NCBI GenBank assembly: GCA_963730935.1
Contig: CAVSTP010000004.1
Span: 608,001-672,000 of the forward strand
Direction: 5' to 3'
DNA: 64,000 bases
From: an uncultured Nitrospiraceae bacterium
GTDB lineage: Bacteria > Nitrospirota > Nitrospiria > Nitrospirales > Nitrospiraceae
Part shown: one piece after another, positions 51,000 through 56,610 of the stretch
Position numbering within the stretch: position 1 is the stretch's first letter
How the letters are laid out: each line of letters starts with the position of its first letter
Program-made: the position numbers and the translations under genes
Notes under the pieces: model-generated
What the model saw: the letters and a program-made list of their open reading frames with translations, nothing else
Database searches by the model: none
Told to the model about the DNA's origin: nothing

Positions 51000-51025
51000 A
51001 TGCTCCCTCCAAGCTTGCTCGTTTC
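51000..51025 (+). repeat. Repeat module A, copy 1
   Basis: ATGCTCCCTCCAAGCTTGCTCGTTTC, identical to 53097-53122. Confidence 0.9.
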
Positions 51026-51202
51026 TTCCCTACTCAGCTGAGAGAGGTCGGACTTAGCGGGTGGCGCCGGTCTGGGAGCCTTTCTCACCCACCCAGCCCC
51101 TGCCGCGCCGAAACGCGGCTTTCACCAAGCGCCCGCAGCGATAACCACTCGCCACTTTCCTTCCCAGAATTGGGTGAGCCAATGCGGTCCTGCTGCACGA
51201 CG

Positions 51203-51269
51203 GCGAGCACTGTTCGATAGTCCGTTCACGCGAAGCGCCAACGGACCGAGTTGCACAGCCGAGCAGATG
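51203..51269 (+). repeat. Repeat module B, copy 1 (hairpin GTCCGTT/AACGGAC)
   Basis: Close match to 53029-53093. Confidence 0.88.
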
Positions 51270-52325: not shown

Positions 52326-52955
52326 CTAGGTGCCGGCAGGGGCATCTTCCATGGGATCGGCGTAAACTGCTCGCCAGCGATTCAACCCTAGCATTCCCTC
52401 TCCGTAAGGGATCACAGTCACCTGACTTCGATGCTCCGCGATGGCCAGTCTTTTTTTCTCTACATAGGCGTCGATGTATTCGATTCGATCCCATCTTGCG
52501 AACGGACCCCAGACCTCGTACGCCCAGGCGCCTCCGCTTAGCGCGAGACCAGATTCACCCATACTATCTCTCACCAGACTGCCCGCCTGACGGTGGGCCG
52601 TATGCCGATCGAGCTCTTCGTGAAGCGTATAGATCTCAGTAGTCTTAATGTGAGTCATGAGCTCAATCAGTTTTCGCCTGACTGCCTTGACATCGACCTC
52701 GTCCGACGCGTCAGGCTGCGCGCAGAAGATCACGTCCTTCACACCCAAGACCTCCGCTGCCCGCAGCGCCTCAGCCCGCCGCACTTCAGCCATTCGTTGC
52801 TCGGTCCAGCCGAAGGGGTTCGACGCCCGGCCACCGTCTGTCACGATGAGAGAAGTAATCTCGGCTCCTTCCTCAACCAGTTTGGCAACGGTGCCTCCCA
52901 TGCCGATTTCCATGTCATCGGGGTGCGCGCTGACAATGAGAATTTTTCGACTCAT
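52326..52955 (-). CDS. PIG-L/LmbE family deacetylase (C-terminus cut by an amber stop)
   Basis: AHPDDMEIGMGG, TDG, RRAEALRAAEVLG, HTAH, HRSQ. Confidence 0.88.
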   Translation of the reverse strand: MSRKILIVSAHPDDMEIGMGGTVAKLVEEGAEITSLIVTDGGRASNPFGWTEQRMAEVRRAEALRAAEVLGVKDVIFCAQPDASDEVDVKAVRRKLIELMTHIKTTEIYTLHEELDRHTAHRQAGSLVRDSMGESGLALSGGAWAYEVWGPFARWDRIEYIDAYVEKKRLAIAEHRSQVTVIPYGEGMLGLNRWRAVYADPMEDAPAGT

Positions 52956-53028: not shown

Positions 53029-53122
53029 GCGAGCAGGTTCGATGGTCCGTTCAGCGAAGCTTCAACGGACCGAGTTGCGGAGCCGAGTAGATGTAGATGC
53101 TCCCTCCAAGCTTGCTCGTTTC
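53029..53122 (+). repeat. Repeat modules B (53029-53093) and A (53097-53122), copy 2
   Basis: Match 51203-51269 and 51000-51025. Confidence 0.88.
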
Positions 53123-53157
53123 CTTCTTTCCTCAGTGACTGACGGCGTGTCCCGAAA

Positions 53158-53351
53158 GGGATGCCTTCGCGTTTTGTGAACGTTACCGGAGGCCCGAGGA
53201 TCCATCAGGCTGAGCCGGGAAGGAAAACTGGAACTGACCGAAGAATCACGGTTGGTACAACCGCGTCTGAGAAAATTCCAGAAGGCTTCCACCCGGCGAA
53301 GCCCCAATGGATCGGGCCGGGAGGTACATGAACAAAACGCGAAGGCATCCC
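53158..53351 (+). repeat. Rod-like structured element C, copy 1
   Basis: Perfect 20-bp closing inverted repeat GGGATGCCTTCGCGTTTTGT / ACAAAACGCGAAGGCATCCC with nested stems; homologous to 55989-56167. Confidence 0.88.
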
Positions 53352-53409
53352 ATCACAAATTTCAAATTCCAAAAAGACCTCCTCACATTTTTCTGGTACT
53401 CTTCCCCCC

Positions 53410-54264
53410 ATGCCTCCCCGCTCCAACCTTCGCTCCCCTCGCCGCCGACGGTCACGCCGCCCCTTTACCCTGAAGAAGCAGTGGCGCTTCATCCGTTGGC
53501 GCTGGCGCGAGGGGCGAGCCTTCGTGCGCGCCCTCTCGGCCGCTCATCTCGCCGTGAGCATTCCCGTCACAATCGTGCTGGTTCTCATAGTCTGGCTTGG
53601 CGTCAATTGGACCTACCACGTCATCAGAAAACCGAGCGAAGTACTATTCCCCTTGGACAGCGCGTTCGACAAAAATTTTGCTGAGACCTGGCGGGAGTAC
53701 GGCCCGCTCTTTCGCGAACATGCCACGGCCGTCATCACTCCCGAATTGCTCGCCGCGCTGGCCCAGGTCGAAGGGAGCGGCAACCCCATCGCCAGAACGT
53801 ACTGGCGCTGGCGCGCGTCGTGGAATCCTCTCGAATGGTATCAGCCAGCTTCAAGTGCGGTAGGCATGTATCAGATCACGTCCGGTACGTTTCAGGCTGC
53901 CAGGCGCTATTGCATTCACGATCATGTTGTTGCGGAGGACGGTCCCTGGCACGATGTCCGGTCATGCTGGTTCAATCGTCTCTACACGCGCGTGCTGCCC
54001 AGTCATGCGATCGAGCTGACGGCCGCTCTCCTCGACCGTCAGGTCGCGCAGGCGATCGGGACCCGATCAGGCGCGACATTGCAAAAGAAGCAGGATCTCG
54101 CCGCGATCATTCACCTGTGCGGGTCCTCGGCCGGGCACGCCTACTCCGCGAGCGGGTTCAAACTCGTTCCCCGGCAGCACTGCGGTGATCACGACGTACA
54201 GACTTACCTTCGGAAGGTTAATCAGGCCAAACAGCAGTTCACCAGGCTGGCAGGACGCGCTTGA
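53410..54264 (+). CDS. Membrane-anchored lytic transglycosylase (SLT-like)
   Basis: TM helix; LLAALAQVEGSGNP; SSAVGMYQI. Confidence 0.8.
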   Translation: MPPRSNLRSPRRRRSRRPFTLKKQWRFIRWRWREGRAFVRALSAAHLAVSIPVTIVLVLIVWLGVNWTYHVIRKPSEVLFPLDSAFDKNFAETWREYGPLFREHATAVITPELLAALAQVEGSGNPIARTYWRWRASWNPLEWYQPASSAVGMYQITSGTFQAARRYCIHDHVVAEDGPWHDVRSCWFNRLYTRVLPSHAIELTAALLDRQVAQAIGTRSGATLQKKQDLAAIIHLCGSSAGHAYSASGFKLVPRQHCGDHDVQTYLRKVNQAKQQFTRLAGRA

Positions 54265-54409
54265 ACCGTAACATGAGATTGATGTTTTAGGGGGAAACAC
54301 GCGAATACGTGCAGAGAATTCGTTTCTGCTGGTCGGCTAGCCCCCACCCCGCTTCTTGTGATAACCTGAGACTACACTCGCCGGTTCGACCGTAAGGCAA
54401 TCACAACCG

Positions 54410-55264
54410 ATGAAGATCATCCGCGCAGGTCGACTCCTGCTCATCACCGTTCTGTTCGTATCGCTGGCCTTTGCCGGGTGCGTGGCCACGACATTGGTGT
54501 ATAACCATGCCGATTGGCTGATCGCGCGTCAGATCGACGGCTACTTCGATCTCAACCGTTCGCAAAAAAGGTTTCTCTCGTCGCGGTTGAGCGACATTCT
54601 GAGCCATCATCGTCACGAAGCGCTGCCCCGCTATGAATCGGTGCTGCACCAGGCCAGAGACCGCGCACAGGACGGGCTGACTCCAGACGACCTCGACTGG
54701 GCCTTCCTCCAATACGATCAGCTGAGAGTCGATCTCTTTGCTCGCTTCGTGTCCGATGGAACGGAATTCGTCCGCCAGGTCAACGATCCCCAGGTCAGCC
54801 GGTTGAAGAAAGCGTTGCAGAGCCACTTGGCGCAGGCGGAAGCCCTGCTTCAAGATGATGTCGCCGTACGCCTGACCAAGCGTACGGAGCGAATCCTCGG
54901 CTTGGCCAGAGAATGGCTGGGGCCGCTCTCGATGCAGCAGGAACAGGAGATCACCCGCCTGACGATGAACTTTCCCGATACGTTGCCCTTCTGGTATGCC
55001 CACCAGAAGCACCGTCATGAGCAACTCGTGGCGTTGATCGAATCTCGAAAAAGCGATCAGACGGCCGCGCGGCTTGAGGATTGGTTGGTCAACCAGGACA
55101 AAGACGCAGATCCACAGTTCGCCGAGATGATGAAGCAGCTGCGCCGCCACATTACAGGTCTGGCAATCAGCCTCGATCGCTCCGCCACCGCGGCACAGCG
55201 TCGGCACTTCCTCTCCAAGGTGGACGAACTTGCGGCCACCGTCCGGCGTCTGCAAGCCGCCTAG
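54410..55264 (+). CDS. Helical lipoprotein (DUF6279-like)
   Basis: Lipobox FAGC; YNHADWL...YFDL...Q...HRHEALPRY. Confidence 0.75.
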   Translation: MKIIRAGRLLLITVLFVSLAFAGCVATTLVYNHADWLIARQIDGYFDLNRSQKRFLSSRLSDILSHHRHEALPRYESVLHQARDRAQDGLTPDDLDWAFLQYDQLRVDLFARFVSDGTEFVRQVNDPQVSRLKKALQSHLAQAEALLQDDVAVRLTKRTERILGLAREWLGPLSMQQEQEITRLTMNFPDTLPFWYAHQKHRHEQLVALIESRKSDQTAARLEDWLVNQDKDADPQFAEMMKQLRRHITGLAISLDRSATAAQRRHFLSKVDELAATVRRLQAA

Positions 55265-55494
55265 ATCTTCAATCCCCGACCAGCTGGCCCGTCTCCGGAT
55301 CGATCCCGGCGAACATCGTGCGGGGCTGGCCGCCGATGGGGCCGATCTGGCTGGACGCCGCTCGACGGCGGCGGTTAGCGCTTCGGTCTTCTCAACAGCA
55401 CCCCTACCGCGGCTTCGCGCACCCTGTTATCGCTGTCGCTGTCGGCGACCCTCGTCAGGGCCGGCTAGATAGGGCGCCTCGAGCGCTCAGGTGA

Positions 55495-55956
55495 CTATCC
55501 TATCCGCTGTTCAAGCTCATCGATCAAGACCCGTTGGCCGGGAAGAAGCTTCCGTCTCGCCAGCGCAACGTCGCACCAGAGTGCGCGATCGACTTCTGGA
55601 AAACTTTGCACGCGTCCCGACTCTGGGGGCCATTCCATAGAAAAGCTGTTGCTGCGGATGGACGCGGCATCGAGATCCCCTTCGACCGCCCATGCCCGGA
55701 TAATTTTTCCGCTTGGCTGCTTGGCCGGCGGCAACTCGACGCAAGACCCGCTCAGTTCCGCTCCGGTCTCTTCAGCAAATTCCCGTTTCGCCACCGACAG
55801 CGGATCTTCACCTTCGACATACTCCCCCTTCGGAATCGACCAGGCACCGTCGTCTTTCTTGGCCCAGAACGGACCGCCGGGATGGACGAGCAACACTTCG
55901 ATTCCCGTTTCACGCCTCCGATAGAGGACAATTCCCGCACTCAGCTTTGCAGCCAT
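55495..55956 (-). CDS. NUDIX hydrolase
   Basis: HPGGPFW, PKGEY...AKREFAEETG, FPEVDR. Confidence 0.9.
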   Translation of the reverse strand: MAAKLSAGIVLYRRRETGIEVLLVHPGGPFWAKKDDGAWSIPKGEYVEGEDPLSVAKREFAEETGAELSGSCVELPPAKQPSGKIIRAWAVEGDLDAASIRSNSFSMEWPPESGRVQSFPEVDRALWCDVALARRKLLPGQRVLIDELEQRIG

Positions 55957-55988
55957 CCGTGATGTATCACTTTCTACAACAAGGCTAC

Positions 55989-56167
55989 CTTGGCCTTCGC
56001 GAACGTTACCGGAGGAGCGAGGTATCCACCGGGCTGAGCCGGGAAGGAAAACTGGAACTGACCGAAGCACCGCGGTTGTGAACAACCGCGGCTGAGAGAA
56101 TTCCAGAAGGCCTTCCGCCCGGCGAAGCCCGAAAGGATCGCTCCGGGAGGACGTGAGCGAGGTCAAG
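55989..56167 (+). repeat. Rod-like structured element C, copy 2
   Basis: Shared core GGCTGAGCCGGGAAGGAAAACTGGAACTGACCGAAG; apical hairpin CCGCGGTTGT-GA-ACAACCGCGG. Confidence 0.88.
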
Positions 56168-56184
56168 ACAGCCGTTCTCCCCTC

Positions 56185-56610
56185 CTAGCCTTCCAGCTTG
56201 GCATTCATCTCGATGGTCGTATTCAACAATTTTGAGATCGGGCAGCCGGTTTTTGCTGCCTGCGCGGCCTTGTCCCATGCCGCCTGATCTGCTTTTGGCA
56301 CACGTCCTTTGACATCGAGAAGGATGTGCGTCACCGCCCAGCCCGCCTCAAGTTTGTCCAAGGTCACCGTGGCCTTCGTCTCTAGTTTCTCTGGCGTCAA
56401 TCCGGCATTGCCCAACTGCGCGGAAAGCGCCATAGTGAAACAGCTAGCGTGGGCGGCGGCAATCAATTCCTCCGGATTGGTGCCTTTCCCGTTTTCAAAG
56501 CGCGTCCCGAAGGAATACTGCTGGTTGGTCAACACCCCGCTGTCACTCGACACCGTTCCTTTGCCACTTTTCAAATCGCCTTGCCAGACCGCCGATCCTG
56601 AACGTTTCAT
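56185..56610 (-). CDS. osmC: OsmC peroxiredoxin
   Basis: AVWQGDLKSGKG, GTNPEELIAAAHASCF, CPISK. Confidence 0.93.
   Translation of the reverse strand: MKRSGSAVWQGDLKSGKGTVSSDSGVLTNQQYSFGTRFENGKGTNPEELIAAAHASCFTMALSAQLGNAGLTPEKLETKATVTLDKLEAGWAVTHILLDVKGRVPKADQAAWDKAAQAAKTGCPISKLLNTTIEMNAKLEG

Follow-up and report, generated by a model that had tools for sequence, protein, structure and literature searches.

Background

The attC sites of integrons are conserved in structure over sequence, lie behind stop codons and have their folded strand opposite the gene. According to Bertels and Rainey 2011 (PMC3116915), RAYT mobilises REPINs, which have a highly conserved REP at each of their two termini and flank a RAYT gene. 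For the bcr1 repeat of Bacillus, compensatory changes and a 5-bp target duplication are described (PMC3184786), and ISL3 elements are reported to generate 8-bp repeats and possibly to prefer AT-rich sites (PMC3469429).

Here we describe an uncatalogued hairpin repeat of about 195 letters, called the rod below, which is dispersed in genomes of the Nitrospira family. The window in which it was noticed is a 64,000-nucleotide stretch from an uncultured Nitrospiraceae bacterium (GenBank assembly GCA_963730935.1, contig CAVSTP010000004.1, positions 608,001 to 672,000). The rod is a structured repeat of the REPIN, ERIC and bcr1 kind, but it departs from all three in its termini and in the lack of target duplications. 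In the full window Rfam gave no match that reached gathering score and one chance match (E 5.6) outside both copies, in agreement with the preliminary description, which had recognised no known family. A literature search of partial coverage found no account of the rod, and it was not found in the plasmid and phage collections searched.

Results

Copy 1 occupies 53158..53351 on the plus strand, is closed by the perfect 20-bp stem first reported for it, and is flanked by two divergent gene starts, a minority context in which it lies behind no stop codon. The neighbours on either side, both outside the element, encode a PIG-L family deacetylase (52326..52955, minus strand) and an SLT-like protein (53410..54264, plus strand; a weak Pfam match, below cut-off). 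Copy 2, also on the plus strand, has as neighbours a NUDIX hydrolase (55495..55956, minus strand) and an OsmC-like protein (56185..56610, minus strand), and its 3' end is 12 nt from the opposite-strand osmC stop codon that faces it, which is the majority context. The fold-back first given for copy 2 at 55989-56167 is present, but its stem runs slightly further, to 55983..56173. The two copies have the same orientation and are 88% identical across 150 nt. As RNA, copy 1 folds at -102.5 kcal/mol (z -8.78, reached by 0 of 200 shuffles) and copy 2, taken over 55989-56167, at -93.9 (z -6.80); DNA folding gives z -8.79 and -6.64. The pair of same-orientation fold-backs in the preliminary description is thereby borne out, and its double change from GGCCCGA/TCGGGCC in copy 1 to GGAGCGA/TCGCTCC in copy 2 can be read in the sequence, as can the inner helices that it listed. 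Both copies that it named are real, but the whole genome holds four rods rather than two. As RNA the minus strand of copy 1 folds better (-110.8), so one copy alone cannot tell the strand.

The most conserved part of the rod is a core, the 5' half of which in copy 1 (53222..53238, plus strand) comprises a GGAA helix, an asymmetric loop, a CTGGAA helix and a tandem G-A module. The 3' half lies at 53273..53290 on the same strand, and directly after its AGAAGG many relatives insert an optional side hairpin. Ahead of copy 1 are a 5' leader and pyrimidine tract of a shared type (53097..53135, plus strand) and, further upstream, a 57-nt piece left over from an older rod that belongs to a different family (53037..53093, plus strand), which copy 1 has partly replaced and which persists intact at this position in the related genome G015. 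Elsewhere in the window, at 51006-51250, another leader is followed by nested repeat pieces that include this older rod family.

The fold and its covariation are established. In an alignment of 56 copies (sequences below 86% identity, with side-hairpin forms and copies more than 86% alike left out), both-side changes occur in 29 of 43 pairs, in 333 cells; none of 500 shuffles reaches that, and slid controls give at most 15 pairs. Among 23 copies obtained by BLAST the corresponding figure is 27 of 39 pairs. The compensatory changes first proposed from two copies are strongly present among the 56, and this supports the accompanying proposal in so far as the covariation is selection-like and concerns a single-stranded fold whose loops are rich in purines. 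Purines make up 75% of the unpaired interior columns in the same copies, with tandem G-A modules among them. Part of the near-invariance of the core reflects the way of searching, as many copies were retrieved by the core pattern. Distant copies have an altered core helix with the loop kept, and a distant family still shares the G-A modules and the positions of the loops with the family of the window rods. Conservation is lowest at the termini: the outer 20 nt show 36-37% identity between copies, yet 9-22 of their positions are paired (at least 14 in 55 of 56 copies). Outer stems are often perfect but unrelated between copies, as in the 20 bp of copy 1 and the 35 bp of L271.

A search of 33 genomes of the genus with a covariance model built from the 56 copies found 1-15 rods each in 25 and none in 8, of which 4 are at least 90% complete. 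Among 151 genomes of the phylum the model matched 13, namely this genome, 10 of 25 from its own family and 2 of 5 from one other family, and a DNA query matched 114 of 201 family genomes, in 31 of 39 genera. A pattern scan of GTDB returned at least 128 loci; 78 of the 80 listed with names are from Nitrospirota and the remaining two have no profile match. Nine matches to the 20-nt core pattern in viral contigs were all chance matches without a rod, and the base pattern gave 0 there.

Two further rod families were seen. One, of about 110 nt, has a core motif with 12 matches (G000 C3:585076-585184, C3:705187, C2:234023 and nine more) and sits at purQ, behind 5S rRNA and in other places; one such rod lies in the tip of a long rod with a 4-nt repeat on either side (L290). 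The other, of about 125 nt, has at least 12 copies (G000 C2:43286, C4:775953, C4:782509 and others), in which the purine-loop strand mostly faces opposite-strand stop codons.

Rods are present, absent or replaced at orthologous sites, and they nest in one another. At the copy-2 site the same rod is found in G000, G023, G004 and G048, the site is empty or holds a remnant in G011, G012, G013 and G043, other rods occupy it in G014, G015, G042 and G047, and other sequence in G006 and G045. At the copy-1 site G015 carries a different rod whose end falls on the same base and G047 a third. Behind purQ, the 5' arm of a rod that is whole in G015 is kept in the present genome and a shorter rod replaces the remainder. 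Newer rods stand where older rods had their tips, in as many as three layers, and rod-in-rod nests occur at L082, L113, L139, L290, L512, L514, L515 and L520. Rods are also freely deleted, truncated or interrupted. The rod is thus mobile DNA in its behaviour, coming and going between close relatives, and the empty, remnant and replaced orthologous sites support the mobile repeat that the preliminary description had offered as one option. Among high-identity pairs of empty and filled sites there was no clean one that defines an insertion signature. Many sites are old and common to several genera (purQ, ahcY, secA, gltD), so movement may be rare or past. Arrays in which rods alternate with toxin-antitoxin genes occur at L102, L013 and L028. 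In the first of these (L102:3928-7419) four same-facing rods, two of them cut right after the core, alternate with a methyltransferase and toxin-antitoxin-like pairs; the arrangement is cassette-like, and no integrase was seen within the locus.

Rod copies are intergenic and the neighbouring genes are unrelated in function. The 158 copies counted form 95 site clusters, with gene calls from our own codon model. In 39 of these clusters the rod 3' end, read on the purine-loop strand, has a stop codon of the opposite strand no more than 60 nt away, whereas no cluster has a same-strand stop at that distance from the 5' end; the 5' side is nearly always gene-free. The genome holds 26 leaders of the type at 53097..53135, many of them preceding rods of several families, and part of the asymmetry arises because these 5' leaders travel with the rods. 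The two other rod families of the genome have a similar orientation. We infer that the stop-codon bias combines the 5' leader with selection against polar insertions. Outward-facing leader-plus-rod pairs at 13 loci have cargo that is unrelated or absent, with no gene in common. Two regulatory roles were rejected: a cis-regulatory leader, as the neighbours are unrelated and mostly on the other strand, and an outer stem that serves as the neighbour's intrinsic terminator, as no A-run lies upstream. At L017 and L165 rods stand directly behind a 5S rRNA gene, and the rod of L165 is flanked on both sides by terminator-like hairpins.

The preliminary description had suggested an HUH-type transposase, and a link to one was looked for and not found. 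Y1 transposases occur in 14 of the 33 genus genomes, are absent from G024 (15 rods), G048 (9) and G043 (6), and do not track rod copy number; none of 23 Y1 loci, nor one further locus, carries a rod. The genome's only Y1 transposase (L170, G000 C4:809747-810085) is RAYT-like and has on both sides, in inverted orientation, another short repeat, which recurs nearby. Y2 transposases of the IS91 type were found in 0 of 5 genomes, in a search whose controls were likewise silent. IS110, reverse transcriptase and ISL3 transposase each number 0 in this genome. Reverse transcriptases were absent from 4 of 4 high-copy family genomes, and of the two in one distant genome neither stands beside a rod. IS66 transposases were found in 0 of 5 genomes, and the ends of distant rods presumably resemble those of IS66. 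No rod was present at the GIY-YIG and DUF559 loci checked, and 582 neighbouring ORFs held no recurring linked enzyme beyond syntenic genes. Integron integrases occur in 5 of 33 genus genomes, and a rod was present at 1 of 7 integrase loci examined. At L235:2300-6500 (G041) a broken integron integrase with its own attC-like cassette sites adjoins the rod behind gltD.

A transposase link was found for one subfamily, which excludes the window copies. Direct repeats around the inverted ends were 8 bp long in 2 of 241 copies and in no shuffles, and repeats of 5-7 bp stayed near the shuffle level. The two copies led to a subfamily of 265-281 bp whose ends of about 25 nt align with the ends of Nitrospiraceae ISL3 elements, a DDE family. 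Three intact 1314-bp ISL3 elements have perfect 8-bp repeats and match, by tblastn, a Pfam-confirmed ISL3 transposase; one of them (L491) encodes a 423-aa protein. Fourteen rod-bearing units have ISL3 ends, and their duplications match at 8 of 8 positions in 4, 7 of 8 in 3, 6 of 8 in 4 and at most 3 of 8 in 3. The same ends also enclose unrelated interiors, which would make the rod a passenger there, and none of the ISL3 loci tested contains a match to the rod interior. Most likely, to judge from these sequences, the 265-bp subfamily rode an ISL3 transposase, which would be a clear case of a repeat hitch-hiking on the ends of another element. Miniature elements in which ISL3 ends enclose other interiors were seen at L480, L489, L477, L499, L501 and L485; they measure 265 to 580 bp, and the 265-bp length recurs with three different interiors. 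Of the linked transposase that the preliminary description proposed to look for, this ISL3 link was the only one found; the window copies have no ISL3 ends.

Discussion

Covariation, however strong, is not by itself enough for an RNA gene, and in the rod it is the mark of DNA that is gained and lost. Tandem G-A pairs, a conserved feature of the rod, are also stable in RNA. GNA and GNNA loops are described as exceptionally stable in DNA, and functional RNAs as favouring GNRA and UNCG (PMC13037366). Among 142 distinct apical loops, which come from related copies and are hence not independent, GNA accounts for 26 of 50 triloops, GNYA for 20 against 13 for GNRA, and UUCG for none. G-T makes up 2.3% of paired cells against 1.2% for A-C (only 54 to 29 cells). 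Speaking against DNA, the G-U share of minimum free energy folds hardly differs between the two strands (5.3 and 5.1%) and is near the 6.8% of tRNAs, though lower than the 10.4% of 16S rRNA and the 13.1% of tmRNA, and copy 1 has its better RNA fold on the other strand. The loops and the 2% of G-T favour DNA weakly, and the rod likely folds as single-stranded DNA rather than being an RNA gene.

What else might the rods be? A multi-copy trans-acting ncRNA, a protein sponge or scaffold made from the purine-loop strand with upstream room for a promoter, would agree with the strong covariation, the conserved purine-rich loops, the optional side hairpins, the gene-free 5' side and the better RNA fold of the purine-loop strand (49 of 56 copies). 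It is nevertheless improbable: the rod was not found in some largely complete genomes of the genus, its copies are deleted, truncated and interrupted, and the loops offer no UUCG and few GNRA. The purine-loop strand has no sigma-70-like promoter or terminator at either window copy, the upstream regions of 241 copies show no -10 box enriched at a set position, and one subfamily starts about 15 nt after a terminator-like hairpin. The protein-binding ncRNA suggested in the preliminary description thus gained no positive support. The RNA data were assembled contigs from eight of the 22 runs listed; in these, copy 1 was uncovered in four of four runs and part of copy 2 covered in one of four, but missing cover of this kind is not evidence; one contig of depth 5.6 skips 143 nt of copy 2, a hint only. 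Four further runs had no rod-sized contig among the pieces listed, an absence that we do not count as evidence either. Unlikely, too, is a 3'-UTR element read from the pyrimidine-loop strand on the mRNA of the upstream gene and acting on its stability, on termination or on the release of ribosomes, a role that has been put forward for REP and ERIC. The preference for stop codons at the 3' end and the better minus-strand fold of copy 1 speak for it, and we count for it the account in PMC12306157 of REPs within 15 nt of a stop affecting translation. Against this, the neighbours are functionally unrelated, copy 1 follows no stop codon, and the other strand is the one favoured both by the G-A modules and by G-T being more frequent than A-C; a possible effect on mRNA would not account for spread or nesting.

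It is quite improbable that the whole family consists of ordinary MITEs, in which the outer stems would be terminal repeats of DDE insertion sequences and the duplications would have eroded in old copies. The ISL3-ended subfamily with its intact relatives and one distant copy with a perfect 8-bp repeat (L272) fit such an origin, but 8-bp repeats are rare in the family as a whole, the termini are its least conserved part, and the genome has no ISL3 transposase. At the window copies neither conserved terminal inverted repeats nor a target-site duplication was found, and at 13 other loci with the terminal motif of copy 1 an insertion sequence occurs in none within the 250-520 nt examined. For the window copies the ordinary-MITE reading is largely refuted. 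Template switching occurs in quasi-palindromes, and functionless palindromes that switching from arm to arm keeps paired and that the repair of broken hairpins reshuffles, without any enzyme of their own, would explain perfect yet unrelated outer stems and the failure to find an enzyme. Such an origin is very improbable: internal loops should vanish, yet loop positions and G-A modules reach the distant family, and arrival at new sites is left unexplained.

We favour, at a probability of roughly 60%, the following reading: a non-coding hairpin repeat of the Nitrospiraceae undergoes gain, loss and replacement, its folded form is likely single-stranded DNA, and a putative structure-recognising nuclease or transposase likely moves it in trans. 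The rod would be non-autonomous DNA, with its folded single strand as the form that is recognised. The enzyme, encoded elsewhere, would cut a hairpin in its folded state and put in a new rod, in many cases together with its leader, and the old tip would be deleted. The base of the old hairpin would then become the new outer stem, a relic of the last landing site, which may have been an older rod or an ISL3 miniature element. Surviving copies are mostly just behind stop codons, antisense to the gene. A wider proposal, which we regard as tentative and on balance doubtful, is that rods of about 110-220 nt with G-A patterns form a superfamily of DNA elements that swap tips guided by structure, without terminal sequence, and stack like Russian dolls, with toxin-antitoxin or other cargo behind stop codons and an undescribed class of transposase. 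If a dedicated enzyme exists, it could provide a tool for structure-programmed DNA insertion, and the nests are ready substrates for finding it.

With the rod, a major group of nitrifiers gains a structured repeat that had not been catalogued. Its likeness to attC is one of placement, behind stop codons with the folded strand opposite the gene, and of some toxin-antitoxin arrays such as that at L102; unlike attC sites, rods are mostly solitary and beside core genes, integrases are confined to few of the genomes, and the boxes RYYYAAC/GTTRRRY were not found at the rod stem base. One subfamily resembles ISL3-family MITEs in its ends and in its AT-rich 8-bp repeats, but differs from them in its interior. 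ERIC, Nezha and bcr1 are, like the rod, dispersed repeats of 100-200 bp that fold stably, are often found at the 3' ends of genes and have empty and filled sites in relatives (PMC3184786). As described there they have conserved terminal repeats and target duplications, which the rod lacks outside the ISL3-wrapped subfamily, and the rod differs from them, as far as that description goes, in nesting in its own kind. With the REPIN/RAYT system it shares a non-autonomous, extragenic and multi-copy nature, a hairpin of single-stranded DNA or RNA, compensatory changes in the stem and a transposase presumed to act in trans. It differs from that system in that none of the Y1 loci tested carries a rod, the RAYT-like gene of the genome having other flanking repeats. 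Its conservation is inside out, with interior loops kept and termini free, and together with nesting by tip replacement this sets it apart from REPINs and MITEs.
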